Origin: a virus
Strand: one strand, 5' to 3'
Virus record (IMG/VR): IMGVR_UViG_3300022745_000022
Coordinates: 1 to 20,343 of that record
DNA length: 20,343 nucleotides
Part shown: one piece after another, positions 1,143-18,534 of the stretch
Layout of the letters: every line of letters starts with the position of its first letter
Numbering within the stretch: position 1 is the first letter of the stretch
Translations under genes and position numbers: made by a program
The notes under the pieces: model-generated
Database searches by the model: none
The model's input: only the letters and a program-made list of their open reading frames with translations
Told to the model about the DNA's origin: nothing

Positions 1143-1714
1143 CTATGGGGAATCCCTGATTTCTCAGGGCTTGGACTGTCCCTTTGTGTATTTTCCTTTA
1201 TCGTCTCTAACGCAGTGATGTTCCTGATGACACCGTTTGCACAGTGGTTCCAGATTATCAACTGCATTATTCGTACGATCGTGATCCTTGTGATGGATCA
1301 AAGTAGCTCTCACACCACATCTATTGCATATTCGACCGTGAGTTTCAAATCCCAGTTTGGTGTAGTTGCCCACTCCAGTTTTGTACATGTGATTCGAAGT
1401 CCCTAGTTGTGCGCCGCCGGAACCTACATTGGGATATTTGATCCGGCCGGTCTTGTGAGCGTGACGAAGTGCAATGAATGCACTGCGACATCTTGCACTA
1501 CAATAGATAGCATTGCGATACTTACCTGGTGGGATGTCCCCACCACATTTAATACACACCTTCCGTCCAGTCTCTACACACGCCTCCGTGGACATCTCCA
1601 CGGTGCTTGGCTCGGGATTGCCTCCAACATTACTTGCTGAGGTTTCCCCGACTTTGAAAGGTTTTACTTCGGCTTGGCTATTCTGAGTGTTCATACTCAA
1701 AGATATTGTTTTTA
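1143..1714 (-). mobile_element. Group I self-splicing intron (572 nt) in the DNA polymerase gene
   Basis: Exon 1 ends in U (TTCGGT) and the intron ends in G (CCCCATAG); removal restores KTINFG-LAYGM in frame. Pairings seen: P1 ACTTCGGT/GCCGAAGT with a U.G pair; P10 GCCAA/TTGGC; P3 ACCTTTC/GGAAGGT; P4 TCGGG/CCCGA; Q-like GGCAATCCCGAGCCAAGC; P6a CCGTGGA/TCCACGG; P7 GACTG/CAGTC; P8 TGTGTATT/AATACACA; P9 CCCTGA-GAAA-TCAGGG. Confidence 0.95.
1164..1694 (-). CDS. Intron-encoded HNH homing endonuclease with N-terminal Cys4 zinc finger
   Basis: CIKC...YCSARC zinc finger, then CNRC...HHKDHDRTNNAVDNLEPLCKRCHQEHH (HNH core). The functional domains sit in the P8 loop. Start uncertain: TTG 1700, ATG 1694 or a later ATG/GTG. 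Confidence 0.9.
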   Translation of the reverse strand: MNTQNSQAEVKPFKVGETSASNVGGNPEPSTVEMSTEACVETGRKVCIKCGGDIPPGKYRNAIYCSARCRSAFIALRHAHKTGRIKYPNVGSGGAQLGTSNHMYKTGVGNYTKLGFETHGRICNRCGVRATLIHHKDHDRTNNAVDNLEPLCKRCHQEHHCVRDDKGKYTKGQSKP

Positions 1715-3935: not shown

Positions 3936-4629
3936 TGTCTACCCATTTTATAGGTTCATGACCGTTCTCGGTGAGCCACTCGTTCACACGAATGAATTGC
4001 CTGCCACCGGTGAAACGCATCTTGCCCCCGGAGTAATTCTCATACTGCGGATGACAGGAGCGTATGACATTGCAACTGAAGCTCTGTACGATAGGAGTTG
4101 CTGTGTCATCGGCCTGCTTTCCCCATAGCATGAAGGTTACCGGGCGTCCCGAGAGCTGCCCCTTGATGGCTACTGTCTCCATGATCTTCTGGGTGAGTTG
4201 CTGCCATCCCCAATCCCGGTGGGCATTGGCCATACGGTAGGTGGTGGTCAGTACGCTGTTCAGCATGAGTACGCCTTGCTTGGCCCAGTCTGTGAGGTTG
4301 GGATTGGTGCGCACCCCGTATCCGCTCAACTCGAGCTCCTTGAAGATGACACGAAGGGACGGTGGTATGCTGGGAAGCTGACTGCTGAAGGACAGGCCAT
4401 GGGCTTCATTGCCCGGGTATGGGTCCTGGCCAAGGATCACGATCTTGGTGTGGCTGGGCTGACAAAGCCTGAGGGCCGTGAAGATGTCCTTCTTGGCCGG
4501 CCTCAGTTTATCGCCCTGCTGGTCCACCCGTGCCGCGATCTTGGCCATCCAGTCTGACCGGAAGTGGGGAAGCAGGACATCAGCCCATTCCTCTCCCACA
4601 TTGTCGGCCAGGGTCATTTCTTTTTCCAT
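3907..4629 (-). CDS. ung: Uracil-DNA glycosylase, family 1
   Basis: KIVILGQDPY water-activating loop, AHGLSFSS, IPPSLRVIFKEL, WAKQGVLMLNSVLT, FMLWG and catalytic HP. True start may be ATG 4617 (ATGA overlap). Confidence 0.95.
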   Translation of the reverse strand: MEKEMTLADNVGEEWADVLLPHFRSDWMAKIAARVDQQGDKLRPAKKDIFTALRLCQPSHTKIVILGQDPYPGNEAHGLSFSSQLPSIPPSLRVIFKELELSGYGVRTNPNLTDWAKQGVLMLNSVLTTTYRMANAHRDWGWQQLTQKIMETVAIKGQLSGRPVTFMLWGKQADDTATPIVQSFSCNVIRSCHPQYENYSGGKMRFTGGRQFIRVNEWLTENGHEPIKWVDNAETGATPQ

Positions 4630-6200: not shown

Positions 6201-6208
6201 TATATTTG
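6201..6208 (+). promoter_or_regulatory. Bacteroidota sigma-70-type -7 element (TATATTTG)
   Basis: Exact TAnnTTTG match 14 nt before the ATG of the lone plus-strand gene; no clear -33 TTTG. Confidence 0.6.
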
Positions 6209-6612: not shown

Positions 6613-6862
6613 ACTCCTGGGCAGTGAGTTTGCGGAAGAACTGGTTGAACAGTCCGATCCCACAAGTCTCGTAGTACGGCTCTTCGCCGGGTACTTGTGG
6701 GTGATAGACTCTGTAGTACGCCCTGTCCGGGGGTAATACTCTGCTTCTAAGCTGATACCGGTACAGCATGCCTTCGTCGTATCCTTCCATCCCACCATGC
6801 CCCATTGGGCTCGCGTCGCATATGCACCATCCGGTTTCCCGGACGTAGTATTGCTCAGACAT
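6578..6862 (-). CDS. Hypothetical protein, 94 aa (MSEQYYVRETGWCIC...)
   Basis: Start moved to ATG 6862 because the longer ORF crosses a terminator hairpin; converges on and overlaps the Dps-like gene. Confidence 0.7.
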   Translation of the reverse strand: MSEQYYVRETGWCICDASPMGHGGMEGYDEGMLYRYQLRSRVLPPDRAYYRVYHPQVPGEEPYYETCGIGLFNQFFRKLTAQEFKSYNAIEISG

Positions 6863-6884
6863 GGCTAATGTTTTAGTTGTGAAT

Positions 6885-6915
6885 AAAAAGCCCTGACACC
6901 TTTCAGTGCCAGGGC
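6885..6915 (-). terminator. Intrinsic terminator-like hairpin
   Basis: GCCCTGGCAC-TGAAAG-GTGTCAGGGC followed by TTTTTATT. Confidence 0.75.
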
Positions 6916-7037
6916 AAACCAAACCCGATAAAGGCCCGGGTTACCGTGGATGCTTAACCCTCCCGGGCCTACCCGTCATTAACGTGTCGGGGCTATCACG
7001 ATCGCAGGCAAAGCCTACAATACTTTACTCATTCGTT

Positions 7038-7691
7038 CTATGACCGCTTTGACTGATCAAGTTCGTGCTTCAAAAGTTCCTGGTTCAACCTCTCCACCTC
7101 AGATTTAAGGGTGGCGTTTTCGACTTGTAGGTGGTTCATTTTACCATAGTATTCCCACTTTTTATCGCAGTCCTTTTCAGCAAACAGTTTTATTTCAGCT
7201 ATCTCTGCATCATTCGCGGTGAGTTGGGCTTTAAGTCTTTCGATTTCCTTTGCGTATAATTCTGCTATTCCTTTAGCAGCTGCATCCTTTGCCTCCAACA
7301 ACGGCTCGTAGTGTTGCGCGGCAAGGTCGCGGATTTTTAACCCAAAGTCAGCAGAGTGAAAAACATCAGTTTTGTCCCATAGTTCTCCTACTTTTGCATC
7401 CGTCATCCACGGCTCGGGGGTGTTAGGTGTGGTCACTTTTTCGGTTGTGTACTTATTAAATTCTTCGTCCGTCATGATGCTCTTAAAATGGTTATCCATC
7501 CTAATGTTTTCAGTAAGCAATTCCGGCCTAGTTGTGCGCTTTTCAACCGGGGTACAATCAACGCAATGGTCTACCAGTTCAACGTGATTTGGTGAGTGAC
7601 ATTCGCATTTGATGTTGTAGTGGAAATAGGTTCTTTGAAGTTGGCCAACCTTTCCACAGATTTGGCATTTACCTGACATTATTTCGCCCAT
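7038..7691 (-). CDS. Hypothetical protein with N-terminal Cys/His zinc-binding module and C-terminal coiled coil
   Basis: CQIC...CECH...HCVDC at the N-terminus; heptad-rich EIERLKAQL...LKSEVERLNQEL at the C-terminus. Confidence 0.75.
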   Translation of the reverse strand: MGEIMSGKCQICGKVGQLQRTYFHYNIKCECHSPNHVELVDHCVDCTPVEKRTTRPELLTENIRMDNHFKSIMTDEEFNKYTTEKVTTPNTPEPWMTDAKVGELWDKTDVFHSADFGLKIRDLAAQHYEPLLEAKDAAAKGIAELYAKEIERLKAQLTANDAEIAEIKLFAEKDCDKKWEYYGKMNHLQVENATLKSEVERLNQELLKHELDQSKRS

Positions 7692-8475
7692 TGAGTAAGT
7701 TTTTTGCGCGGGTGAGTAAACTGTTTGTAGTTCCTGTTTTGGGAAACTTTTCGTTCAGGTATTCAAGTTGATTTATGCACTCCCTGACCATATCCTTCAG
7801 CTCGGTGATGCGGGTGCGCATGGCTTCTGCTGTACTCATCAGGTCTGATACTATGTTGCCTTCCCAATCCGCGTCATATTCTAACTTTTCGTCAGCGGGT
7901 TCGGATTTGGTGTCAATAGGGCATACACTGTATCCACAATGATATTGGCACCTATTACCCGTTAGCATTTCATCCTGACACATAAATGCCGGTTCCGTTT
8001 GTTTCGTTTGGTCAACCATTTGGGTGTTCTCACCGCTATGGTCAGCGTCAAGGCTTTTCTTGTCCGTTAGTTCAGGCACATTCCGAAGAGGGGGCCATCC
8101 AGAAAATAGTGTGCATCCAGGTAATGTCGCATCTCCTTCAGCTTCAAAATATTTCTTGCAAAAATTAGTATTCATGTTCCAGGTTTTATTGTTGTGATGG
8201 GGCGGAGTAGCTTTAATTAGATTAGATAAGAATGAGTATGCCCAATGCTCAAATGTTGTTTTGTCGTGTTCTAAAAAGTATTTTCTAATCTTTTCCAACC
8301 CAAGATGATACTCATTAACATCCCCCTCCAGGTCAGCGGGTTGGCTTTTACACTCATCACATTGGCTCTCGCATGTTACACCTGAGCCAGTTTGCCATTC
8401 TTTACAGTAGTGCGCTCCGGGTGCGCTATTAACCTTCACAGGCGGTACGTTGGTCTGGTCGATGTTATTGCTCAT
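7669..8475 (-). CDS. Hypothetical protein, 268 aa, with two Cys4 repeats
   Basis: Long ORF in an AT-richer block; two C..C..C..C-KS(Q/E)PAD modules. Confidence 0.7.
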   Translation of the reverse strand: MSNNIDQTNVPPVKVNSAPGAHYCKEWQTGSGVTCESQCDECKSQPADLEGDVNEYHLGLEKIRKYFLEHDKTTFEHWAYSFLSNLIKATPPHHNNKTWNMNTNFCKKYFEAEGDATLPGCTLFSGWPPLRNVPELTDKKSLDADHSGENTQMVDQTKQTEPAFMCQDEMLTGNRCQYHCGYSVCPIDTKSEPADEKLEYDADWEGNIVSDLMSTAEAMRTRITELKDMVRECINQLEYLNEKFPKTGTTNSLLTRAKNLLNGRNNVR

Positions 8476-8488
8476 GGTGGGTGGGGGT

Positions 8489-8707
8489 TTAGTCGTTTCT
8501 TGTTATGTATATACGCTCACCTCCGTCTGTTGATGGCGGCTCATTTGTCAATGGATGCCACGGTCCGGAAGGGGCCCCGTTTAAATCCCAATACCGATTT
8601 GTCTCAGTGTCTAAAATGTAGTACGGGTATCCGCCGTGGTCAGTTTCTTCCTCCAGCGTCATAATGCGTTGGCCATTGTAAAAAGTAGGCTTTGTAATGT
8701 CTAACAT
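8489..8707 (-). CDS. Hypothetical protein, 72 aa
   Basis: ATG after an A-rich leader; co-oriented with neighbours. Confidence 0.65.
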   Translation of the reverse strand: MLDITKPTFYNGQRIMTLEEETDHGGYPYYILDTETNRYWDLNGAPSGPWHPLTNEPPSTDGGERIYITRND

Positions 8708-8716
8708 ATTATTTGT

Positions 8717-8853
8717 TTTTATACCCCATCGGGGCGTTCAGTTATCATCTTCTTCTATTTTATACCCCATCGGGGTGGTTAAATATTTTCCACTATAACC
8801 TACTTTCCTTCACCTTCTGACAAATATTTTCCAGTAACCCCATCGGGGTGGTT
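8717..8853. repeat. Three copies of a palindromic ACCCCATCGGGG motif
   Basis: TTTTATACCCCATCGGGG at 8717-8734 and 8758-8775; ACCCCATCGGGGTGGTT at 8764-8780 and 8837-8853. Confidence 0.85.
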
Positions 8854-9026
8854 GTGAGGGGTGGGTTTGGGTTACCTTCCACTGGTTGTCCATTGATGTC
8901 CCAGAAAACGGTACCCTCTAATTCCCACCGTTGCTTGTTCGGGTTCCACCGCATATTGGGGGTAAGATTTGCCTTGCCACATCTAATCGGCTCCCCCGCT
9001 AAGGCTTTTTCGTGGTTGAATTTCAT
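8793..9026 (-). CDS. Hypothetical protein, 77 aa (F..EKALAGEP N-terminal motif)
   Basis: ATGA overlap with the upstream gene; the N-terminal motif is common in small phage proteins. Confidence 0.65.
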   Translation of the reverse strand: MKFNHEKALAGEPIRCGKANLTPNMRWNPNKQRWELEGTVFWDINGQPVEGNPNPPLTTTPMGLLENICQKVKESRL

Positions 9027-9340
9027 AGTCTACTCTTTAATTCGTTATGAATGGCGGTCAGTTCGACGTATCGGCACAATACCGTTGTGCATTCCTTGAA
9101 GGTTCCATATTCCTGTATTATGTCTCCCATCTTCATGCATTCCTCTATCCTCGCCTCCGCCTCCTTTATCCCGCATAACGTGGCAGTATGTATGGTTTCA
9201 AATTCAAGAACTTCCGCATATTCTTTACTTCCGTCAGCACATTTTACGTTGGAAATAAATTCTGGAATGTGGAAGTCGCTCTCTCGTATTAGGTTGGCGT
9301 ACCGCTCAACGATGGCATCGGCTTGTTGTGATATAGTCAT
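9023..9340 (-). CDS. Hypothetical protein, 105 aa
   Basis: ATG after an A/C-rich leader; stop overlaps the next start. Confidence 0.7.
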   Translation of the reverse strand: MTISQQADAIVERYANLIRESDFHIPEFISNVKCADGSKEYAEVLEFETIHTATLCGIKEAEARIEECMKMGDIIQEYGTFKECTTVLCRYVELTAIHNELKSRL

Positions 9341-9363
9341 GTCATTTTGAGTTTGAAGTTAAT

Positions 9364-9393
9364 AAAAAGAGCCCGCGTGTAGACACACCGGGC
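9364..9393 (-). terminator. Intrinsic terminator-like hairpin downstream of tRNA-Gln
   Basis: GCCCGGTGT-GTCT-ACAC(G)CGGGC followed by TCTTTTTATT. Confidence 0.7.
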
Positions 9394-9427
9394 GTTGGGG
9401 GTTAATTCACGAATCCTCTACCGAGGG

Positions 9428-9498
9428 TTCCGAGACCTGGATTCGAACCAAGTCAGACAGACCCAAATTCTGCCGTGCTACCGTTACATCATCTCGGA
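9428..9498 (-). tRNA. trnQ: tRNA-Gln (anticodon UUG), CCA not encoded
   Basis: Acceptor TCCGAGA/TCTCGGA plus discriminator A; D loop TAACGGTAG; anticodon arm GCAGA-ATTTGGG-TCTGT; T arm CTTGG-TTCGAAT-CCAGG; 71 nt; one D-stem mismatch. Confidence 0.9.
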
Positions 9499-9499
9499 A

Positions 9500-9697
9500 T
9501 CAGTTATATAACTCTGGGTTGGTTTCCATAGTGGTCTCCTGTATAAGGATCCCGCAGATCACGCAATAACCCAGTCCATTGTACTGCAGATACTGTTCTG
9601 CAGCTTCTTTGCTGAATGCGGGAATATTCGGACCTCCAAAGGTCTTCAATTCCCCATCAGTAGGATCGATCGCCCGAATGAGTGTTGTGAATATCAT
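9500..9697 (-). CDS. Hypothetical protein, 65 aa
   Basis: ATGA overlap with the upstream gene; ends 1 nt before the tRNA. Confidence 0.7.
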   Translation of the reverse strand: MIFTTLIRAIDPTDGELKTFGGPNIPAFSKEAAEQYLQYNGLGYCVICGILIQETTMETNPELYN

Positions 9698-10083
9698 ACA
9701 TCAGCGGTTTTAAGATTGTTCAGTGGCCGGATAGAGCCTTCCTCTTTCGCAGACTCCATAAACGCCATGTGTTGCTGTACTCCTTTCTCATAGTTCTCCT
9801 TGGTATCGGGTAGGATCTGACACTTCGTTGCTGTATGTATGCACGCGCATACCACTTTCTCAGGACTGGACTCCAGCACATAGTATCCATCTCCCAGGTA
9901 TGTCTGCAAGAGTGAATAGATCGGTGGAGGATTCTTGAACCAGTTGATGTCCATGAGAATGGTCTGTGAATACAACGGGGGCCCCGCTTCAGCGACCACT
10001 GACGGCACTGAAGCCAGGTGTTCAGAGATCTCCTTCGCCGCAATCATACCGGGGAGAATCCTAAAGAAGTTCCGTCTGTTCAT
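9694..10083 (-). CDS. Hypothetical protein with twin-arginine (Tat)-like N-terminus, 129 aa
   Basis: MNRRNFFRILPGMIAA resembles the S/T/N-R-R-x-F-L-K consensus. Confidence 0.7.
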   Translation of the reverse strand: MNRRNFFRILPGMIAAKEISEHLASVPSVVAEAGPPLYSQTILMDINWFKNPPPIYSLLQTYLGDGYYVLESSPEKVVCACIHTATKCQILPDTKENYEKGVQQHMAFMESAKEEGSIRPLNNLKTADV

Positions 10084-10378
10084 GTGGTAATGGGTTTATA
10101 ATTGACCAGCCTGCAAAGGTGAAAGATGAGTAGTTCTTATAAGGTGAGTGTGGTACATAGGTCGGGGCCCACTCTCCATCGAAAGGAATACATCTGCGTG
10201 TGGATATACGCATTCCATCAGAGAGGATCATCATGATGAGGTCTTTACTTTCCACATAACTGATCCACCACTTGCTGTAATCGGGCAGAGCAGCTACCTG
10301 TTCCGCCGATAGAGCTTCCGCAATGGCACGTGCTCCCAACAGTCCAGGTACAATTCGAAAGAAGTTCCTTCTGTTCAT
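10061..10378 (-). CDS. Hypothetical protein with twin-arginine (Tat)-like N-terminus, 105 aa
   Basis: MNRRNFFRIVPGLLGARAIAEA; start moved to ATG 10378, matching the paralogous N-terminus next door. Confidence 0.7.
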   Translation of the reverse strand: MNRRNFFRIVPGLLGARAIAEALSAEQVAALPDYSKWWISYVESKDLIMMILSDGMRISTRRCIPFDGEWAPTYVPHSPYKNYSSFTFAGWSIINPLPHEQTELL

Positions 10379-10390
10379 ATGCTTTGTTTT

Positions 10391-10421
10391 AAAAGAGTCC
10401 ACGACCAAGACTGGTCAGGAC
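10391..10421 (-). terminator. Terminator-like hairpin with GUCU loop
   Basis: GTCCTGACCA-GTCT-TGGTCG(T)GGAC followed by TCTTTT. Confidence 0.55.
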
Positions 10422-10457
10422 GGTTGAAATAATTGCACTAACAAAAAGAAAACACAG

Positions 10458-10599
10458 TCGGGGAGACAGGAGTCGAACCTGTAACTCCCCGGTATGAAAG
10501 ACGCTGTGTAGCTTTGCTCTCCGTTTCGGCAGGCTCCCGTCCGTACTCGGTAAGGGGGCTACACCTGCAATTATTCCCCACGGAAAGGAGCGTCTTTCA
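10458..10599 (-). ncRNA. Candidate structured ncRNA ending in a tRNA-like acceptor/T-arm minihelix
   Basis: 11-bp closing helix TGAAAGACGCT/AGCGTCTTTCA, 7-bp GTGTAGC/GCTACAC and inner hairpins, then CGGGGAG-TT-ACAGG-TTCGACT-CCTGT-CTCCCCG-A; no credible ORF in the interval. Confidence 0.65.
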
Positions 10600-10624
10600 A
10601 TATTGTTATTGTTTCGAAAGTTAG

Positions 10625-10653
10625 AAAACCCCGCCTGTAGACACAGGCAGGGG
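10625..10653 (-). terminator. Terminator-like hairpin with GUCU loop
   Basis: CCCC(T)GCCTGT-GTCT-ACAGGCGGGG followed by TTTTC. Confidence 0.65.
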
Positions 10654-10697
10654 GAAAATGAAAAAATGAAAAGCTGGCTTGACTAAGGTAGGGGTTT

Positions 10698-11138
10698 TTA
10701 TAAACCCATGGTCTTGCGGCATTCGGGTCCGATACCCATATGAATGCTCTTGGGATCAGTGAGGTCACGACCACACTTGCCACAGCGTCCCATGTGAAGG
10801 ACTTGGAACCCAGTGGGTAATGAGCCACTGACCAGATTGTTCCAGAACCATTGAAACTTGCCTGCAGCTTTATTGCCGGCGGGATCCTGCGCGATCTCCG
10901 GTTTGGGAATCCATACCCAGGTGTCGGAGAGATGGTTATAAGCCAGCTTACCGACCTCATAGCCTGCACAGCGTACGTAGCGCCATGTAGGGGCAGCTTT
11001 GGACGTGGTGATGCGTACAGCAATGTGCTGCTTGGTCTCCGGATTACGCACCGTGAAGTGCGCCATGCCGGCCGTGGCGAACTTGAACCACATGGTGCGT
11101 GGCAGTTCGACTTCAGAATGGGAGGTCATCGTATTCAT
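10698..11138 (-). CDS. DUF6011-like zinc-ribbon domain phage protein
   Basis: C-terminal GRCGKCGRDLTDPKSIHMGIGPEC matches the recalled C..CGR.LT.P.S...GIGP.C signature. Confidence 0.8.
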   Translation of the reverse strand: MNTMTSHSEVELPRTMWFKFATAGMAHFTVRNPETKQHIAVRITTSKAAPTWRYVRCAGYEVGKLAYNHLSDTWVWIPKPEIAQDPAGNKAAGKFQWFWNNLVSGSLPTGFQVLHMGRCGKCGRDLTDPKSIHMGIGPECRKTMGL

Positions 11139-11535
11139 GGTTATCCTGGTTTGATTCTGTGATTTCGGGTCTCTCCTTGTTGTCCTCGTCTAGCTCATGC
11201 TTGAGCATAGTACAGCGGTTGCGCAGGGTGTCCAGAAACATCCTGTGCCTGTCGTAGCTGTAGTTGCGCGTGTAGAACTGCAGGACATCGACGAGGCGAT
11301 CCTCGAGCTGTTCAGGGGTGAGTACTTCGGGGACAGTGGGCCTTCCATAACGGTGCTCCAGCAGGTCCATGCAGATCTTGCTCTTGAGTAGCTCATCCAG
11401 GGAGTCGTCGAGCTTGGGATCCATATGGATCCCGTAGCCCTTGGCGTAAGCTCTTGCCTTCTTGATGACCTCAATGGCATTGAGCATGGCGTTGGAGGCG
11501 GTTTGTACCGGCATCCGGTCAGGTATATCAACCAT
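11113..11535 (-). CDS. Hypothetical protein, 140 aa, acidic tail ending DDLPF
   Basis: Operon-consistent ORF; the C-terminal DDLPF resembles the SSB C-terminal interaction tip. Confidence 0.75.
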   Translation of the reverse strand: MVDIPDRMPVQTASNAMLNAIEVIKKARAYAKGYGIHMDPKLDDSLDELLKSKICMDLLEHRYGRPTVPEVLTPEQLEDRLVDVLQFYTRNYSYDRHRMFLDTLRNRCTMLKHELDEDNKERPEITESNQDNHEYDDLPF

Positions 11536-11553
11536 AGATGTGGATTGAATGTG

Positions 11554-11583
11554 AAAAAGAAGGGAGCTGGGAAACCAGCCCCC
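11554..11583 (-). terminator. Intrinsic terminator-like hairpin
   Basis: GGGGGCTGG-TTTC-CCAGCTCCC followed by TTCTTTTT. Confidence 0.75.
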
Positions 11584-11628
11584 AATGATGTACTACCCTG
11601 GCCGCCCAGGGTACGGCCCATCGTACGC

Positions 11629-12111
11629 TTACAGTGCAATACCCAATCCGGCAAGGCCATTAAAGCCCTGAGTACCGTACTGTGGTTCCAGGATGAGGGC
11701 GAAGAGATCGCCGCGTCCTAAAGGCAGGCTCAATCGAACACCGCCGGAGACGAATGGAACCGTGGACTTGACGCCCTCCGGTGGACCATTCAGGTAAGTG
11801 CGGATACCACCCATACCCTTGAAATACAGGTAGCGATTCACACGGATGAGCGTGGCTGCATAGACGTACGCACTGACCTCCACTGTACCAGCGTGGACAT
11901 TATCCACTTGGGTGAAGGACACGCCTCCCAAGTATCCGAAGCGGGCATCCTGTGGCCAGGCGCCCATCTCGATACCAAAGCCGTGGGATTGGACGAACAG
12001 GGTCATTTCCCTGAACCTGTCCTGTGTGCAGCCCTCATCCCACCCGCGGTACTGAGCCATACCGTGCACGTGGAACATACTCACCAGGATAAGGACGATG
12101 AAGTTTTTCAT
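11629..12111 (-). CDS. Secreted protein, probable small outer-membrane beta-barrel
   Basis: Signal peptide MKNFIVLILVSMFHVHGMA-Q; Gly/aromatic-rich amphipathic strands (FGYLGGVSF, LYFKGMGGI, PFVSGGVRLSLP, LILEPQYG, LAGLGIAL). Confidence 0.7.
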   Translation of the reverse strand: MKNFIVLILVSMFHVHGMAQYRGWDEGCTQDRFREMTLFVQSHGFGIEMGAWPQDARFGYLGGVSFTQVDNVHAGTVEVSAYVYAATLIRVNRYLYFKGMGGIRTYLNGPPEGVKSTVPFVSGGVRLSLPLGRGDLFALILEPQYGTQGFNGLAGLGIAL

Positions 12112-12352
12112 AGCGCTTCTTTTTGAGTGTGGAATACCGATGCCACAGTGCCCCGAGCAGTGCCGGGAGTGGGTAGCAACAGTATAGGATATAGATCGTG
12201 GAGAAGGAGACGCTGGTGAACCATCCGTGGATGGAGAATGCAGCGAATGTGGCCAGCCACACCACCCATGACAGGATGATGGGCAGCAGGAAGATGGCGA
12301 AGGTCATTGCCATGTTCAGTTTGTACTCCATGCGGAGCTGTTGTCTGTTCAT
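12035..12352 (-). CDS. Membrane protein (about 2 TM segments)
   Basis: Two hydrophobic stretches; the C-terminal tail overlaps the next gene by 77 nt. Confidence 0.7.
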   Translation of the reverse strand: MNRQQLRMEYKLNMAMTFAIFLLPIILSWVVWLATFAAFSIHGWFTSVSFSTIYILYCCYPLPALLGALWHRYSTLKKKRYEKLHRPYPGEYVPRARYGSVPRVG

Positions 12353-12381
12353 TGCTTTGGGTTTGGTTGGTTATTAATCGG

Positions 12382-12576
12382 TCAGTCTTTGAGCATGCTC
12401 CAGATCAGTACTCCGAGCAGGAATACTGCGACCAGGGCCAGTGGTCCTCACAGAGGTGCGGTCACCCACCACCACGACCAGTCGATCACATGCGTGAGCT
12501 TCAGGATGAGGAAGGTGAGAAAGAGCAGGAATGAGACGCTGGTTGAGACCGCATTGCTGTTATTGCTGTCGCTCAT
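12382..12576 (-). pseudogene. Small phage membrane protein (LKL..VIDWSWWWV.APLW family) interrupted by an in-frame TGA at the conserved Trp
   Basis: Hand translation: MSDSNNSNAVSTSVSFLLFLTFLILKLTHVIDWSWWWVTAPL*GPLALVAVFLLGVLIWSMLKD; TGA at 12448-12450. Confidence 0.75.
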
Positions 12577-12608
12577 GGTTCAAGGTTTGGTTATGAAAGA
12601 TAGTGATT

Positions 12609-13004
12609 CTAGTCTTCAAAGGCAAGTGTGTCATCTACACGCACAACATCTACACGCTCAGAGTAGTAGCCATTACTGGTACCGTACCACCGGATGGTGA
12701 TAGTGTCCTTGAGCGTGCGGATGTTGTAGAATGTCCAGGTGTGGGAGTCATCATACTCATCCTTGGCCGGAAGATCACTGGACGTGTTTTCAGTGGCCGA
12801 TAGAATCTGCTGACCCACTAGGTCTTGTATATTACCTGTGATGTCTTCGATGTAGACGCTCTCACAACAATTCCGGTCATGATACATCTTGTACTGCTCC
12901 ACGACTCCTGAATCCGGTGAGTCCTTCACCTGGAAGATGATCTCGTCATTGGCATCGTTGACTGTAATGCCTACGACATACTTGTTGTCAAGCTGGCTTA
13001 TCAT
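12609..13004 (-). CDS. Conserved phage protein (DUF7448-like)
   Basis: MYHDRNCCESVYIEDITG and TWTFYNIRT...IRWYGTSNGYYSE are motifs of a widespread phage family (family name from recall). Confidence 0.8.
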   Translation of the reverse strand: MISQLDNKYVVGITVNDANDEIIFQVKDSPDSGVVEQYKMYHDRNCCESVYIEDITGNIQDLVGQQILSATENTSSDLPAKDEYDDSHTWTFYNIRTLKDTITIRWYGTSNGYYSERVDVVRVDDTLAFED

Positions 13005-13025
13005 GTTGATTTGGTTTTGAAAGTT

Positions 13026-13055
13026 AAAGAAAGGGAAGGCACTTGCTGCCTCCCC
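13026..13055 (-). terminator. Intrinsic terminator-like hairpin
   Basis: GGGGAGGCA-GCAAG-TGCCTTCCC followed by TTTCTTT. Confidence 0.7.
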
Positions 13056-13390
13056 ATTTATCCCTCTGCACTCAGTTGTAATAGGTTTGCCACCAGAAAC
13101 GCCATATCCTTTCGGGAGCTATTTCCTACCTAACTAGTACAACTGCTCACCCTTGGGAGCTGATTAAGCATATACTCGTCACTCGGTTAATCTGTATAAC
13201 ACAGCATGACATTGCATATCCACTCCGAGACAGATATACTGTCCTGTTATCTTAATCAGGCAGTTTCACATCTTAGAAGACGTTCGCTGAGATGGACTAA
13301 GCCAAATACTCCGATGACCTTCAGACTAAGAATTATATATCTGCGTGAGAATGGTGCATTAACAGGCCCACCTCTCGGTAAGCCACTGAA
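13056..13390 (-). ncRNA. Candidate ~335-nt structured ncRNA
   Basis: No credible ORF; multiple long-range helices (CAGTTGTA/TACAACTG, TAGGT/ACCTA, CAGATATAT/GTATATCTG, CCGAGA/TCTCGG) and a possible pseudoknot CCTGTTA/TAACAGG. Confidence 0.55.
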
Positions 13391-13391
13391 C

Positions 13392-13787
13392 TTACTCTGC
13401 CTCAGCGTCGGCTGGAACCTTGTCCTGCAGCACTTCTGTACGCTTACCGGTAGAGAAACTGATATAGGAATCAGCATTAACCGGGTTGAACATACTGTAC
13501 TGGAAGGTGGTATCCTTCATGTTGGCCTTGTGATTCTTCTCATCCCTGACTTTGATGTCAGGACACAGGGCACTGACCAGGCTTTCCACGACCTTGGCAA
13601 GATTCTCTTCGCGTACGGTGAGGATGATGGGCGCTTCTCCACCGCCAAGCATTCCCATGAGCCCACCGGTTTCCAGGTTGAGCTGCAATTGGAATCCACG
13701 GGCCCATACGGGCTTTTCACCTTCACTGATATCGGTGGCCGGGATCAGGAAGGGGGTCACTATGATGTGCGAGATGTCTTTGAACAT
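13392..13787 (-). CDS. Hypothetical protein, 131 aa (MFKDISHIIVTPF...)
   Basis: Start moved to ATG 13787 after an A/C-rich leader; the longer ORF crosses a terminator. Confidence 0.75.
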   Translation of the reverse strand: MFKDISHIIVTPFLIPATDISEGEKPVWARGFQLQLNLETGGLMGMLGGGEAPIILTVREENLAKVVESLVSALCPDIKVRDEKNHKANMKDTTFQYSMFNPVNADSYISFSTGKRTEVLQDKVPADAEAE

Positions 13788-13808
13788 ATGGGTTTGATTT
13801 AAGGTGAC

Positions 13809-13837
13809 AAAATAAAGGGAACCCCGAAGGGTCCCCT
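13809..13837 (-). terminator. Intrinsic terminator-like hairpin with cUUCGg loop
   Basis: AGGGGACCC-TTCG-GGGTTCCCT followed by TTATTTT. Confidence 0.8.
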
Positions 13838-14120
13838 GTGCCTGATGCATCACAGGCTTTGGTCCGTTGTACATCCGGATTCGCAACGGAACTTCTTGAA
13901 AGGGAGTCCACTGTACCTGACATACGTGGAACTCCCTGTGCCTGAGATACAGGCTTGCTTTCAATGAAGTGAGGAGGCTCGTTTAGCAGCCGACCTCCCC
14001 GTGATTGTGCTGACAGCATTGGGAACGACGAGCGTCTATTTACCAATGAGAGCCTGCATCACAATGTCCGTGCCGGCGCCCAGGGACCTGGTCAAACCAT
14101 TGGTATGGGGGCCGGCAAAT
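13838..14120 (-). ncRNA. Candidate ~280-nt structured ncRNA with a duplicated hairpin module
   Basis: Stems TGCCGGC/GCCGGCA, GCTCGT/ACGAGC, AGGGAGT/ACTCCCT, TCCGTTG/CAACGGA; two AAGCCTG..TCAGGCACAGGG copies 100 nt apart. Confidence 0.45.
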
Positions 14121-14121
14121 A

Positions 14122-14598
14122 TCATTTCCATGAAACATAAACTGCCTTGGCAATACAGGTATATCCTGTGGGGGTAACCGCATCGATGGAATCTTTGTAT
14201 ACTTCATACACTTGAGAAGCCAGGCATATCTCGTCAGCGTTTGATCTGTACACATTCACCCAGCCTCTATTGTTGCCGTCCAGCATGGCCCGCGTGGTAC
14301 TCCAGCCATCCGGTAACGGATGCACATTGTCCGTTTGCTCTTCCAGCATCTCCTCATAGATCTGCTGCCAATACTTGAAGTTGGACATCAACTGTTCACG
14401 ACTGTGGGCTATATTGGCGTCCCACACAGGGAATGCCCACCAGTCTATGGGAAGTAATAGGAAGGCTGAGAATGTCTCCCGTGGCTTCTCCATGACAGAC
14501 ATGCGCTGCTCAAGATTGAGCTTTTGGAAGTGCTTGAGGTATGAAGGCCACCAGTCTTTGGATGAGTACCGGGATTCGAACTGTGCAAAGGTTACCAT
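14122..14598 (-). CDS. Hypothetical protein, 158 aa (C-terminal GWVNVY module)
   Basis: Operon-consistent ORF overlapping the upstream stop. Confidence 0.75.
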   Translation of the reverse strand: MVTFAQFESRYSSKDWWPSYLKHFQKLNLEQRMSVMEKPRETFSAFLLLPIDWWAFPVWDANIAHSREQLMSNFKYWQQIYEEMLEEQTDNVHPLPDGWSTTRAMLDGNNRGWVNVYRSNADEICLASQVYEVYKDSIDAVTPTGYTCIAKAVYVSWK

Positions 14599-15356
14599 TC
14601 TATGGGGATTGAGATGATGAGCGATGGTGCTGTCTCTCTTGTGCGTTCCTTGAATTCAATGGTGGCGTAAGGTGGTCCGAATTCCGTTTTAAACACATTG
14701 ACCCACACTGTCTTCTTTAGTGGTGGTGGTGCCATTTCCAGGTTGTACTCCTCCCTATTGGCACACCTTCCATTATCAGCCCAGCGTTCAAGTGCCAAGA
14801 TTCTCTTTGTGTCCTTATCATAGATCACGCCTATATTGCGGAAAGGTCCTCCGGTCACCACTTCTTCCGGAAGCCGGGCCAATACGACCGCTGGATGTCC
14901 GTTCACGGTTCTTGCGAGCTCACCTGTCAGATGCCGCTCCAGATTGAAGGTGAGATCGAAGACCTCCTGTTCGGGGTACAGCTCTTGATTCCTCAACTTG
15001 TACTGCTCAGTGACCACCTGCCCTAACCACTCCAGCCTTGGCTGTAGTGCCTCTTTGACAATAGTATTATGCAAAGTAGGTGTGGTACTGAAGGAAGAGT
15101 CGTAGATATCATTAGGGGTCTTCCACGCATACGATACCCTACCCACTTCTGAAGGAACAGGAAACGGCTCTGTGGTATCCCATTTGAGCGCATTAGCCAT
15201 ATGACACAAGCCCAGCCAGGCTTTGTAGCCCTCCAGGTGTGCCTTCAGTTTTTCAGCGCTACCGAATGGCGCCTTGATCAATGTTATGACCAGTGCTTCG
15301 TACTTGATGCGCATGGTCTTGAGAATCTCGAAGTTCTTGTCGTTGAATTTGTACAT
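14592..15356 (-). CDS. Hypothetical protein, 254 aa (FNLE..LTGE.ART..G...VWVNVF module)
   Basis: Long ORF; the C-terminal half resembles a common small phage domain. Confidence 0.8.
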   Translation of the reverse strand: MYKFNDKNFEILKTMRIKYEALVITLIKAPFGSAEKLKAHLEGYKAWLGLCHMANALKWDTTEPFPVPSEVGRVSYAWKTPNDIYDSSFSTTPTLHNTIVKEALQPRLEWLGQVVTEQYKLRNQELYPEQEVFDLTFNLERHLTGELARTVNGHPAVVLARLPEEVVTGGPFRNIGVIYDKDTKRILALERWADNGRCANREEYNLEMAPPPLKKTVWVNVFKTEFGPPYATIEFKERTRETAPSLIISIPIEW

Positions 15357-15360
15357 GGTA

Positions 15361-15879
15361 TTAAAGTTTGGTTTGTCCTGTGAATGCTTTGATTACTGTG
15401 AGCAGCTCTTCTTCAGTGGTGATGTAGGGAGCACGCTTGCTGCGTTGGTTACCCCATATCAGAACAATGCCCTGGTGCCTGTTGAAGGTTACTGTGAGAT
15501 CACCATAGGCTTTGTACACCACACTGTCCCTATTGGAGTCAGTGGACTCTAGATACCCGTACGCGTGGTGCAGCATGGATACCAACAATGGAAACTGCGG
15601 TGGCTTGTACATCAAGCGCTCCTGCGTGCGTATATCCGCCTCACGATCGAGCTTATTGAGCATCTCATCTGTGTAGGCACTGTAGGATAGCTCACGCAGG
15701 CGTTTCCAGTCCACTGATTTGTCCACATCACTACCCACTGAGGTACGGATGGAGATCTCAGCAGCATCGTAGACTTCACGGAAAGCGAACCACTTGCGTT
15801 CTGAATGTTGTTGCTGTTTGAATAGGAGTATGGTAGCGAATGTGGCTATGGCCAGCACGATCAGGATAGCTGTGGACAT
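15361..15879 (-). CDS. Hypothetical protein with N-terminal membrane anchor, 172 aa
   Basis: MSTAILIVLAIATFATILLFK; start moved to ATG 15879 because the longer ORF crosses a terminator. Confidence 0.75.
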   Translation of the reverse strand: MSTAILIVLAIATFATILLFKQQQHSERKWFAFREVYDAAEISIRTSVGSDVDKSVDWKRLRELSYSAYTDEMLNKLDREADIRTQERLMYKPPQFPLLVSMLHHAYGYLESTDSNRDSVVYKAYGDLTVTFNRHQGIVLIWGNQRSKRAPYITTEEELLTVIKAFTGQTKL

Positions 15880-15898
15880 GAGTTTGGTTTTGAATGTG

Positions 15899-15933
15899 AA
15901 AAGAATGGGAGAGCCTTCAGATGGGCTCTCCCA
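15899..15933 (-). terminator. Intrinsic terminator-like hairpin
   Basis: TGGGAGAGCC-CATCTGAA-GGCTCTCCCA followed by TTCTTTT. Confidence 0.75.
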
Positions 15934-16105
15934 GCTGCATAACACGTTACCCGTAGCGCGAAGCAGCAGCTTTATCGGTCCATACAGTGAACGTGGCATC
16001 AGTGGTGGATAGAATAGGGAGGCTCAGGGAGCAGGTCCTGAGCACTCCCATTAGCCCGAGGGTTACTCAGGAGGTTAGTACACCTTGTGAGTGTACTGTG
16101 TGAGA

Positions 16106-16378
16106 TCACTCCCACTCAGGAGGTGGGAACAGAAAGATCAAGGTAGCGGCGATAAAGACACCCAGGAATCCTGTGATGACTATCCAGACGCCCACTGAAG
16201 GACCTGTAGCATCAAAACGGAGGTGCTGGGAGATGAATTCAAGGGCATGGTTGTGAAGTTCTCCATGCATCCAGGACCAAGCGGTGGTTCCAAGGATGGT
16301 GAAAGAGAGGACGAACAGGAGCATGAGGAGGCCGAGTAGGAGCCTGTATGATAGGATCCTGAGGGGTGAGTGTGACAT
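16106..16378 (-). CDS. Membrane protein, 90 aa, 2 TM segments
   Basis: Two long hydrophobic stretches; A/C-rich leader. Confidence 0.7.
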   Translation of the reverse strand: MSHSPLRILSYRLLLGLLMLLFVLSFTILGTTAWSWMHGELHNHALEFISQHLRFDATGPSVGVWIVITGFLGVFIAATLIFLFPPPEWE

Positions 16379-16664
16379 ATTGAGGGGTATTTGGTTGTGA
16401 TGGTGACGAGTTGAGGGTGGGAAGTGGGAGCACAGAAGGGTTGAGAGCTGTGAGTGGAGCTGAGGAGGAGCTATATAGTTGCGGATGTCAGAGAGAGTTG
16501 ATACTTAGCGGAATAGAGAGAGGAGTGAGGGGAGAGGGTAGCAGGTCCGCAGGACCACTCACAGCGTGCTCAAGGAGGTGTAAAAATACGTTCTATGGAT
16601 ATATCATTGCAGAGTGAGCGTGTAACTTATTCATTCTCATTCACTTATCTACTCAACCTTGTGC

Positions 16665-16714
16665 GGAAAAACGCACAGATCGAACGAAACGCGTGGAAAA
16701 AACGCACACATCGA
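16665..16714 (+). repeat. Imperfect direct repeat pair (iteron/operator-like)
   Basis: GGAAAAACGCACAGATCGA (16665-16683) and GGAAAAAACGCACACATCGA (16695-16714). Confidence 0.7.
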
Positions 16715-16737
16715 CATACCTATCCAGTTTTTAGCTG

Positions 16738-16745
16738 TATATTCG
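16738..16745 (+). promoter_or_regulatory. Bacteroidota -7-like promoter element (TATATTCG)
   Basis: One mismatch to TAnnTTTG, 18 nt before ATG 16764. Confidence 0.45.
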
Positions 16746-16763
16746 CACAAAATATACTCAATC

Positions 16764-17309
16764 ATGAACAAACTCACCCCTTTGCACACCCAACTAGCTG
16801 ATAAACTGCTGAATATGATGCGTTTGGGCAGCTTATCCCGACAGAATCAGGTCACCCCTGGAGTAGCAGGTTATTCAGTGGGCGGTGAAACAAGGTCCTT
16901 CCGGCTTCACCAGGAGATCACGATCGTTGACCGCACTCTCTATGATGGCCTCTCAATTGGTGCTATTAAACTGGTACTCAAGATCCAACAGGAACTGGAG
17001 ATGAACAATCCACTGTGGGAATGCAGCAATCCCAAGTCAGACATACGTCGTCATCTGGCTGAGCTCAAGCGCAATGACATCATCGAAGCCATTCCAGGCA
17101 CCGATATGTATATCGTTAGTCCGGCCAAGATCCGTCGTGGTCATCCACTGATCACCCTCGGTGCACTCTATGAGTACTGCAAGCGCAGATACACTGAGGA
17201 TAAGCACTGGAAGATCAGCAATGTGGATATCAGGGCATTACGCTCCTCGGGAGTAGCTGTTGCACGGCTACCATTTGATATGGATGTACCTGAGGCGGGC
17301 GAAATGTGA
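16764..17309 (+). CDS. Winged-helix DNA-binding protein, RepL-like replication/maintenance family, 181 aa
   Basis: LSIGAIKLVLKI...DIRRHLAELKRNDII...MYIVSPAKIRRG follows the RepL-type pattern LS..A.KL...I / R...EL....II / Y.INP....G; start moved to ATG 16764. Confidence 0.6.
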   Translation: MNKLTPLHTQLADKLLNMMRLGSLSRQNQVTPGVAGYSVGGETRSFRLHQEITIVDRTLYDGLSIGAIKLVLKIQQELEMNNPLWECSNPKSDIRRHLAELKRNDIIEAIPGTDMYIVSPAKIRRGHPLITLGALYEYCKRRYTEDKHWKISNVDIRALRSSGVAVARLPFDMDVPEAGEM

Positions 17310-17384
17310 ATATTCTGCCCTTATTACGGGCATTTGTGTAGGCCACTGACTCCCGAGTTCAGTACTTGACTGTGGGGCTGGGTT

Positions 17385-17414
17385 AAAAAAGACCAGGCTC
17401 CTTCGAGCTGGTCT
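17385..17414 (-). terminator. Intrinsic terminator at convergent gene ends
   Basis: AGACCAGCTC-GAAG-GAGC(C)TGGTCT followed by TTTTT, 9 nt after a stop codon. Confidence 0.75.
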
Positions 17415-17423
17415 ACGAGTTGA

Positions 17424-17633
17424 TCACTCGCAACGGTCTTCGAGCTGTTCTCCCCACCGGTCGACGCTCTGTTCTTCGTGCTGGTCGTGCAGCCAATCTT
17501 CGAGCAGTTTGAAGCCTGCAGCCATGGGAATGACTGCCACAATGCTCCACTCGCTGAATGAGGTGCTAGAGAGGACGGCTGTGGTGGCCACGAACAATGC
17601 CATAGCGAGCCACAAGTTGGTGTACTGTTTCAT
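17424..17633 (-). CDS. Small membrane protein, 69 aa
   Basis: Hydrophobic N-terminal half, acidic tail; A/C-rich leader. Confidence 0.65.
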   Translation of the reverse strand: MKQYTNLWLAMALFVATTAVLSSTSFSEWSIVAVIPMAAGFKLLEDWLHDQHEEQSVDRWGEQLEDRCE

Positions 17634-17654
17634 ATATTGGGATTGATTGATGAC

Positions 17655-17688
17655 AAAGGAAGGTCAGCCCCCTTGCAGGAGCTGACCT
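17655..17688 (-). terminator. Terminator-like hairpin
   Basis: AGGTCAGCTCC-TGCAA-GGGGGCTGACCT with a weak U tract (TCCTTTG). Confidence 0.55.
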
Positions 17689-17707
17689 CTTTCTGTGGTT
17701 CAGCAGA

Positions 17708-18319: not shown

Positions 18320-18534
18320 GGTCTTTGCTTTATGGGTGATTGAAATGATGACGCATGTTAGATGACGGGGCCAAGCCTCCGCAAAAGTTAGTAGCGGGGC
18401 CTCTCTCGAGGTGGTACCCCAACCCCCCGACACCCTCAAATTTTTAAAAAAAAATTCTTGGTACACTCATTCAGTGTACTTACCTTAGCCTCTGCATTCA
18501 ATTCACTCAGCTCCTTCACATCAAACTCATCGCT
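18320..18534. promoter_or_regulatory. Divergent intergenic control region at the strand switch
   Basis: Separates the leftward and rightward blocks; -7-like TAACTTTTG (minus, 18382-18390) and TACCTTAG (plus, 18481-18488); C tract and A/T tract between them. Confidence 0.55.

Follow-up and report, generated by a model that had tools for sequence, protein, structure and literature searches.

Terminator-like hairpins and structured RNAs packed against gene starts in the early arm of a crAss-like phage: a possible array of compact expression cassettes

The DNA analyzed here (the window, 20,343 nucleotides (nt)) comprises the first 20.3 kb of IMG/VR virus record IMGVR_UViG_3300022745_000022, a genome of 94,294 nt that is rated complete. 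Its minus-strand early arm contains ten GC-rich hairpins with T-rich tails, located between positions 17689 and 6890 and all in the sense orientation. Most of these hairpins stand a short, recurrent distance upstream of the next start codon, and several are preceded by a structured RNA. We tentatively favor the interpretation that the arm is built of compact cassettes arranged head to tail, with a composite terminator/start region at each junction, similar to the PeSL (promoter-early stem-loop) cassettes of T4-type phages.

The capsid, portal, and terminase proteins of the genome match crAss-like phages, the capsid protein with ~31% identity to the crAssphage capsid. A 3885-amino-acid (aa) protein is encoded at the position where the virion RNA polymerase (RNAP) is expected; a search with PF00940 (T7-like RNAP) gave no match, but the control search was likewise without a match, which makes this negative uninformative. 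The early arm begins at a divergent control region (18320..18534), which separates the start of its first minus-strand gene (ATG 18319) from that of the plus arm (ATG 18535), and reaches as far as the intron-split DNA polymerase gene at 3343. All genes of the recurrent cassette are on the minus strand, and the noncoding DNA of the genome is concentrated between 5.9 and 18.5 kb. An earlier annotation made from the letters of the DNA alone (the sequence-only reading) had assigned these cassettes to an early arm. In agreement with this, the region matches the early arm of crAss-like phages, with a layout as in the early region of Cellulophaga phage phi14:2. A Shine–Dalgarno (SD) sequence is absent from every gene of the genome, and the leaders are rich in A and C, with little G. 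SD-less genes with A/C-rich leaders are a habit of Bacteroidota.

The ten hairpins have stems of 9–13 bp, loops of 4–8 nt, and folding energies between −13 and −23 kcal/mol. At nine sites, at least five T residues lie within 8–10 nt after the stem, while the tract at 17659 is weak (CCTTTG). A strict filter, which required a T-rich tail behind a perfect stem of 9 or more bp with five or more G–C pairs, retained seven sense and zero antisense sites in the 12.1-kb arm, compared with a mean of 0.15 and a maximum of two in 60 dinucleotide shuffles of the arm. Outside the early arm, five strict sites are present in 82 kb, three in the 61-kb late arm and two in the 21-kb replication arm. All ten G·U pairs found in the hairpins are in the sense orientation. 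The sense fold is more stable than the antisense fold in eight of the ten, and the summed folding energies are −167 and −139 kcal/mol, respectively. The restriction of G·U pairs to the sense strand, together with the stronger sense folding, indicates that selection acts on the transcript. The enrichment and the sense-only G·U pairs thus bear out the earlier proposal that these hairpins are real elements at the RNA level. By their anatomy, they fit intrinsic terminators or 3′-end stabilizers.

In eight of the ten cases the next ATG lies 17–31 nt after the base of the stem, and in six of these the interval is 26–28 nt. The ends of the U tracts listed by the sequence-only reading, and the gaps of 18–24 nt from there to the next ATG (12 nt at 10391), were recovered at the same positions in our scan. 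Along the minus strand, the hairpin at 17689–17660 is the first of the series (13 bp, −22.7 kcal/mol, three G·U pairs); it has the weak T tract, and its leader carries TCATC at −20 relative to ATG 17633, 26 nt from the stem. The hairpin at 17413–17391, followed by TTTTTT, ends the unit of a 69-aa gene and is convergent with the plus-strand gene 16764–17309 and its own hairpin (17316–17332). The hairpin at 15933–15906 continues into TTCTTTTCACATTCAAAACCAAACTC and ATG 15879, 26–27 nt from the stem, and that at 13837–13816 into TTATTTTGTCACCTTAAATCAAACCCAT and ATG 13787 at 28 nt. The same interval of 28 nt separates the hairpin at 13055–13033, followed by TTTCTTTAACTTTCAAAACCAAATCAAC, from ATG 13004 of a DUF7448 gene. 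Downstream, the hairpin at 11583–11562 is followed by TTCTTTTTCACATTCAATCCACATCT and ATG 11535 (26 nt). Behind the hairpin at 10652–10629 and its tail TTTTCTAACTTTCGAAAC, the next feature is a tRNA-like RNA of ~200 nt, not an ATG. The remaining sites are 10425–10396, with CTTTTAAAACAAAGCAT and ATG 10378 (17 nt), 9393–9371, with TCTTTTTATTAACTTCAAACTCAAAATGAC and ATG 9340 (30–31 nt), and 6915–6890, with TTTTTATTCACAACTAAAACATTAGCC and ATG 6862 (27–28 nt).

Several junctions share sequence. The element TTCTTTT(T)CACATTCAA, which had been reported for two sites, is indeed common to 15905 and 11561, and a third copy at 13032 is 73–79% alike. Overall, three junctions are 73–86% identical over 22–29 nt, a stretch that runs from the 3′ half of the stem through the T tract into the leader. 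The hairpin sequences at 10652–10629 and 9387–9367 are 86% identical.

The arrangement recurs in related phages. Close DNA relatives were not found by megablast of the arm against GenBank phages or by blastn of the spacers with distant settings, and exact peptide words of gene 15356–14592 and of TerL retrieved no close relative from IMG/VR. The DUF7448 gene (13004–12609) was rejected as a synteny anchor: it is promiscuous, with a best match of 61% identity. A TerL protein search led to five relatives (L007, L009, L130, L131, and L132) with TerL identities of 57–70%. The synteny check proposed in the sequence-only reading revealed the same layout in all five, whose minus arms contain small genes, long gaps free of open reading frames (ORFs), and hairpins with T tracts 17–41 nt before an ATG (mode 24–28). 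At the site before a ~70-aa gene, the syntenic hairpins of L007 (4990–4967) and L009 (5510–5483) differ in stem sequence, and the hairpin and T tract are kept. The early arms of the relatives are mosaics, with differing gene sets and short, highly conserved noncoding blocks. In phi14:2, the same scan places one hairpin with a T tract where a 1.7-kb noncoding stretch ends, 20 nt before g006, and a second one 31 nt before the polymerase gene; the two span 4560–4581 and 9568–9604.

Two sequence elements are observed in the leaders. AAAWC, at −14 to −11, is found in early and late genes alike and is therefore a general element, probably part of the SD-less translation start region as judged from its distribution. 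The second element, a TCAY box starting between −25 and −18 (about −20), is characteristic of the early arm. It is found in 32 of 69 early-arm genes of six related phages, compared with 20 of 132 plus-arm genes (p = 3e-6) and one of 26 replication-arm genes (p = 6e-5); at control positions, TCAY occurs in six of the 69 early-arm genes. Of the eight window genes that lie behind a hairpin, seven have TCAY or a TAAC variant (at 13004 and 9340) upstream, the exception being 10378. The box is also present before the first gene of the arm, gene 16378, and several genes inside units. Its enrichment in hairpin-preceded versus other leaders is not significant (p = 0.08); the telling contrast is that between the early arm and the other arms. 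A TAACTTTY version of the box is found after the hairpins ending at 13033 and 10629 and in a block of the divergent control region (about 18420–18375, minus strand) that is kept in L007 and L009 and contains CTACTAACTTTTGCGGA. This block is the most conserved noncoding part of the control region among the window, L007, and L009, and forms a GC-clamped hairpin with the loop UACUAACUUUUGC.

The sequence-only reading had concluded that the short gaps leave no room for a promoter and that the arm requires systematic read-through. Our data do not sustain this step. The primary-sigma promoter of Bacteroidota consists of TTTG at −33 and TAnnTTTG at −7. A whole-genome scan of the 120 nt upstream of gene starts located four TAnnTTTG boxes (6201–6208, 29834–29841, 76351–76358, and a coding one at 80724). 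One of them, the canonical −7 box TACATTTG at 29834–29841, fits between the terminator at 29789–29816 and ATG 29862, 20 nt before this ATG. The box at 6201–6208 (TATATTTG, plus strand) lies 14 nt before ATG 6223 of a 129-aa plus-strand gene embedded in the minus arm. Read-through is thus not a safe inference, because −7 boxes sit 14 and 20 nt before ATGs, one of them behind a terminator, and because viral polymerases such as that of Thermus phage P23-45 use compact promoters. The A/C-rich leader as such belongs to SD-less translation start throughout the genome, and in the early arm it additionally holds the early-specific box ~20 nt before the ATG. Because gene 16378 is preceded by a terminator and by a convergent gene, the arm must contain one internal promoter or more.

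The stretches immediately upstream of the hairpins (slots) had been described as holding tRNA-Gln in one case and folded ORF-free spacers in several others. The tRNA-Gln (anticodon UUG; ttg in the DNA) is confirmed at 9499–9425 on the minus strand, where it begins right after the stop codon of gene 9697–9500. Folding energy supports three of the spacers, all on the minus strand: 16105–15934 (172 nt, from the stop codon of gene 16378–16106 to the next hairpin; z = −3.0), 14121–13838 (284 nt, the most strongly folded slot; z = −4.9), and 10628–10426 (z = −3.5). A fourth, at 13391–13056 (minus strand, z = −1.4), is supported by conservation. The description does not extend to the spacer at 7037–6916 (122 nt, minus strand), which folds no better than shuffled sequences (z = −0.8). 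Three hairpins (17689, 11583, and 10652) have no long spacer upstream.

The spacer at 10628–10426 holds the tRNA-like RNA (10455..10620, minus strand), composed of a stem-closed domain followed by a minihelix of acceptor and T arm (CGGGGAG UU ACAGG UUCGACU CCUGU CUCCCCG A), with the D arm and anticodon arm absent. Its fold is stable (z = −3.5 to −4.0) and its match to the tRNA model is weak (16 bits); ARAGORN made no call at 10620–10455, and IMG/VR contains no exact copy of the minihelix. A minihelix of acceptor and T arm is a minimal substrate of RNase P. For the spacers at 16105–15934 and 14121–13838, blastn with distant settings found no relatives, and the non-twister spacers show no conservation among the 123 loci compared. 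An Rfam search of the whole window at E ≤ 1 returned only tRNA-Gln, a sub-threshold group I intron, and chance matches, and thus no known ribozyme, riboswitch, or small RNA in the spacers. The slot RNAs are mutually unrelated: besides tRNA-Gln, the minihelix, and a single twister-type RNA they comprise two orphans, and no RNA motif is repeated among the spacers. The earlier notion of a dispersed small-RNA system stands insofar as several hairpins are directly preceded by such RNAs (the tRNA, the minihelix, and the conserved twister-type RNA); these are not copies of one dispersed RNA. In comparison with phi14:2, these structured RNAs fit the abundant early noncoding transcripts reported for that phage.

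The spacer at 13391–13056 is the only part of the arm with blocks that are 94–100% identical in relatives (L007 and L009). Conserved blocks, a covariance model, and covariation define in it an RNA of ~300 nt (13361–13056, minus strand) with the architecture of a twister ribozyme. From 5′ to 3′, it contains U13361, a predicted cleavage site, and AA; the P2 strand UGCA (13358–13355); CC; the P4 strand CUCAC (13349–13345); an inserted domain of ~184 nt; the L4 loop CCCAAGG (13157–13151) and GUGAG (13150–13146); P5 (13145–13072); and UGCA (13070–13067), GA, and GGG (13064–13062). The 20-mer CCCAAGGGTGAGCAGTTGTA of this RNA occurs in at least 119 IMG/VR contigs. In this family, a variable P1 is followed by an unpaired U and an invariant AA, then by a 4-bp P2 (UGCA/UGCA), a P4 hairpin whose loop reads UUCCCAAGG, and a P5 that varies; GA-GGG forms the 3′ strand. 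The covariance model of the family scores the window copy at 47.6 bits (E = 8e-10). The U precedes AAUGCA in 62 of 64 distinct instances. Among 84 distinct members found with the model, 23 of 24 pairs show two-sided changes, and 89% of the cells are paired, compared with 25–46% when the partners are slid. P1 is supported by a register test (mean run 2.61 versus 1.22 ± 0.12); duplex energy (−3.07 versus −2.68) was discarded as a measure, being too insensitive for AU-rich helices of 4–6 bp.

In twister ribozymes of type P1, the stems P1, P2, and P4 may be joined by a P5 (Roth et al. 2014, reviewed in PMC5408937). Twister ribozymes further have a U-A scissile step next to P1, with a conserved A behind it, and two pseudoknots, T1 (L4 with L1) and T2 (the conserved GC of L2 with L4). 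The conserved RNA resembles this fold (PMC5408937; RF03160) in having P1, a 4-bp P2, P4, and a variable P5, with covarying helices and with the unpaired U and invariant AA adjoining P1. In addition, CCC of the L4 loop is able to pair with GGG on the 3′ strand of L1, and a second two-base contact (CC with GG) is possible; both pairings are available in every sequence and invariant. Unlike the known ribozymes, the family is not matched by the Rfam models for twister-P1, Twister-P5, and Twister-sister, its L2 dinucleotide is CC, pairing with GG, rather than the conserved GC, and the window copy carries the extra domain of ~184 nt. RF03160 and RF02684 have no match at the locus, the sole RF02684 match in the genome lying elsewhere (10799–10810, 7.2 bits, E = 6.6); RF02681 gave none at E ≤ 10 in four other records, a cmscan of a compact family member at E ≤ 10 listed no twister family, and blastn of a compact member with distant settings returned nothing. 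Given the lack of a match to any Rfam twister model and the deviating L2 dinucleotide, we call the RNA twister-type by architecture rather than a proven member, and its self-cleavage is a prediction.

The model run with filters off finds a single copy in the window, which rules out the other spacers as further copies. L130 and L132 each carry three or four copies in a stretch of 6 kb. One of the L130 copies resembles that of the window in leading directly into a terminator hairpin, a leader, and an ATG, and one L130/L132 rearrangement junction falls at the 5′ block of this RNA. In other phages, the RNA is found directly before ATGs without a hairpin and before unrelated genes. The ORFs downstream of 91 instances form 64 unrelated clusters, usually with no terminator in between, so the RNA is not a gene-specific riboswitch. 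Two or three copies within stretches of a few hundred to a thousand bases, between small genes, are seen in many viral contigs (L076, L036, L016, L010, L014, L023, L051, L045, L074, L019, L064, L018, and L068). In three loci, hatchet ribozymes above the Rfam threshold lie 1–2 kb upstream of the twister-type RNA on the same strand (L010 5635–5767, L016 191–325, and L024 46–208). A pistol-like match just below threshold is present in L030 (1398–1457), and a transfer-messenger RNA in a phage contig (L016 8424–8820).

The anatomy of the arm, its strand bias and enrichment, its conservation in the clade, and the identities of the slot RNAs can be read directly from the sequences. From these features we infer termination at the hairpins, promoter activity in the leaders, and cleavage or processing of the slot RNAs, which can be combined as follows. 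The early arm would be a hyperplastic region of self-contained expression cassettes packed head to tail. Each cassette would start with an SD-less leader of ~20–27 nt, with AAAWC at −14 to −11 and a T(C/A)AY box near −20, continue with one to five small genes and sometimes a stable or processed RNA in its 3′ part (tRNA-Gln, the minihelix, or the twister-type RNA), and end with a sense-strand RNA hairpin and U tract serving as intrinsic terminator and 3′-end stabilizer. Because the units abut, the terminator of one would come to lie 26–28 nt before the ATG of the next, an interval that takes up a U tract of ~8 nt and the minimum unstructured start region. The region of T tract and box could double as a compact early promoter or start site, most likely read by the injected virion RNAP (the 3885-aa protein), as in phi14:2, where the injected virion RNAP makes the early genes and RNAs (Drobysheva et al., bioRxiv 10.1101/2020.03.07.982082). 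With each unit transcribed on its own, dedicated antitermination would not be needed, and some read-through could still take place. Phage RNAP and processing, both named among the candidate mechanisms of the sequence-only reading, thus remain live candidates. A bolder proposal, which we consider doubtful, is that T tract and T(C/A)AY box form the start signal of the crAss-type injected RNAP, fused to the preceding terminator, which would make each early cassette autonomous and exchangeable; self-cleavage and RNase P would release the slot RNAs, which would then build up as stable small RNAs of the early phase.

Several observations weigh against compact promoters at the junctions. The promoter search that had been proposed produced the early-specific TCAY/TAAC box and no sigma-70 or TAnnTTTG consensus: the genome scan found no TAnnTTTG at the early-arm hairpin–leader junctions, and sigma-70-like sites are not enriched (18 found, 20.5 expected). 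The box is short and degenerate, and it lies only 11–14 nt before the ATG, implying very short leaders. It also precedes genes inside tightly packed units and 15% of late genes, which would also suit a leader or translation signal or a remnant of cassette duplication. In phi14:2, the one crAss-like phage with mapped 5′ ends, several distinct early 5′ ends have no common upstream motif, and an early motif was not found (10.1101/2020.03.07.982082).

The main rival to cassette promoters, possible and in our view rather doubtful, is a series of leaky terminators without internal promoters. A few promoters near 18.4 and 16.5 kb would drive long transcripts, and each hairpin would stop part of the polymerases and protect 3′ ends, giving a falling expression gradient and stable 3′ RNAs; cuts at the tRNA, the minihelix (by RNase P), and the twister-type RNA would separate the cistrons. 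A sense-strand hairpin with a U tract is indeed the classical anatomy of a terminator, and the same geometry recurs in the late arm after the capsid gene (29789–29816) and at 32916–32946, where attenuation within operons is usual. The slot RNAs are all known or plausible processing substrates, and phi14:2, with early intergenic RNAs exceeding mRNAs as if terminator-ended RNAs accumulate, and with its hairpin before g006, points the same way. However, nine strong terminators in series would leave very little distal transcript, the early-specific box at −20 is not explained, and gene 16378 calls for its internal promoter. Leaky termination and cassette promoters are not mutually exclusive.

Dedicated processive antitermination, by a put-like cis RNA, a phage protein, or a virion RNAP blind to terminators, would turn the spacers into antiterminator RNAs. 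The dense hairpins on one strand and the structured RNAs just upstream of several of them agree with this, as does the unusual two-barrel architecture of the crAss-type virion RNAP, which might be insensitive to intrinsic terminators. We nevertheless regard it as unlikely. The put sites of HK022 are two specific stem-loops that act on the RNAP of Escherichia coli and occur once per operon. In the window, the slot RNAs are unrelated to each other and so do not represent a single dispersed antitermination RNA, the three hairpins named above lack a long upstream spacer, and the twister-type RNA, present as one copy, elsewhere directly precedes ATGs of unrelated genes without any hairpin. No put-like element or factor was identified in a comparison of the spacers restricted to repeated RNA, with no put model run, and the put-like cis RNAs offered by the sequence-only reading find no positive support. 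The order of structured RNA, terminator, short leader, and gene is that of a textbook transcriptional riboswitch, with the spacer as sensor and the hairpin as expression platform for the downstream gene; the 3′ tail GAGGGA of the twister-type RNA could, as judged by eye and not by computation, pair with the 3′ strand of the hairpin at 13055–13033. Such attenuators are very improbable here, given that the sole conserved spacer RNA precedes so many unrelated ORF clusters, usually with no terminator, that Rfam contains no matching riboswitch, and that one slot holds a plain tRNA. We give least credence of all to N4-type hairpin promoters, in which the inverted repeats would extrude as DNA hairpins recognized by the injected polymerase. 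Promoters of N4 are template-strand DNA hairpins with stems of 5–7 bp and 3-nt loops. N4 and crAss-like phages both inject a giant RNAP, gp66 of phi14:2, a two-barrel enzyme of the crAss type, was assayed on denatured or single-stranded DNA (10.1101/2020.03.07.982082), and promoters based on structure would escape a motif search. The window, in contrast, has longer stems, loops of 4–8 nt, and T tracts behind them, and its sense-only G·U pairs make the template-strand hairpins weaker by 28 kcal/mol in sum.

Further features were noted in and around the arm. The plus-strand 181-aa gene 16764–17309 has no family match and lies inside the minus arm between convergent terminators; the 385-nt region upstream of it (16379–16763) contains repeats of GTGCGTTTTT(T)CC and a long C/T-rich tract, and the gene may encode a regulator accompanied by its operators. 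The small membrane-protein ORF 12576–12380 (minus strand) has one in-frame TGA at 12450–12448 (...WSWWWVTAPL*GPLALVAVFLLGVLIWSMLKD*), beyond which the frame stays open through a hydrophobic segment; the interruption could reflect a recent break, local recoding, or read-through. The 146-aa gene 11138–10698 (minus strand), followed by the hairpin at 10652–10629, matches phrog_20259, and a 146-aa gene at a comparable place in L007 and L008 belongs to Pfam DUF6011. Two adjacent paralogous small genes on the minus strand (10378–10061 and 10083–9694) both begin with MNRRNFFR, a twin-arginine-type signal, and their first 38 nt are 82% identical. In a block of lower GC content (7.0–9.3 kb, 44–46% GC), the leaders are unlike those of the rest of the arm. 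This block contains three minus-strand copies (8723–8853) of the mini-hairpin ACCCCGAUGGGGU, with a stem of 4–5 bp and a 3-nt loop; AUAAAA follows two copies, and the last lies 20 nt before ATG 8707. At the end of the arm, the group I intron-like RNA (1153–1724, minus strand; Rfam 34.6 bits, below the gathering score of 50) is located directly 3′ of the 543-aa ORF for the N-terminal part of DNA polymerase A (3343–1712) and overlaps ORF 1694–1164. The polymerase gene is also split in phi14:2.

The arm bears on the open question of how crAss-like phages begin their infection program. It provides a testable map with ten predicted 3′ ends, an early-specific box, and three classes of RNA predicted to be released by processing, and it ties these features to the exchange of small early genes among related phages. 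Should the box be a promoter, the early genes of uncultured crAss-like phages would become predictable from their sequence alone. If it is not, the array would be a natural test bed for a two-barrel viral polymerase at classical terminators.

Hairpin terminators, tRNAs in operons, PeSL-type cassettes, and twister ribozymes are all of known kinds. Their combination is a variant not described in the literature searched: terminators are densely arrayed in a crAss-like early arm, an early-specific box keeps a fixed distance to the ATG, and tRNA, minihelix, and uncatalogued twister-type RNA occupy the slots next to terminators. The early region of phi14:2 similarly has small genes upstream of an intron-split DNA polymerase gene and long ORF-free stretches, two of which are transcribed more strongly than most genes; its early intergenic RNAs outnumber mRNAs (10.1101/2020.03.07.982082). 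Unlike the arm studied here, it is AT-rich, with only two such hairpins in 14 kb by the same scan and no detected sequence similarity, and its early promoters are undefined, so that the comparison gives no answer on mechanism. In P23-45, an injected virion RNAP of two-barrel type, related to crAss gp66, serves many small pre-early units from 14 small AT-rich promoters, with 14 mapped starts, and uses its own terminator motif (PMC10770324). The terminators of P23-45 share a 26-nt sequence motif rather than a generic hairpin and U tract, and no sequence relation to the early box is known. In HK022, too, early-operon terminators are preceded by structured cis RNA, the put sites. The RNAs ahead of the hairpins in the window are different in each case, among them a tRNA and a ribozyme-like RNA.

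The arrangement is most reminiscent of the PeSLs, composite terminator/promoter cassettes of T4-type phages (Arbiol et al. 2010, PMC2839356; Comeau et al. 2014, PMC4122927). PeSLs have a well-conserved sequence with a recognizable sigma-70 early promoter read by the host RNAP, whereas the junctions of the window carry no host-type consensus and only the short TCAY/TAAC box. PeSL motifs serve as points of genetic exchange; here, recombination is hinted at by the one L130/L132 junction. In both systems, small composite motifs are repeated between small, variable early genes in hyperplastic regions. In the present arm and its relatives, it is the hairpin, T tract, and shared leader that recur, with three closely similar junctions and with gene sets that are shuffled from one phage to the next.

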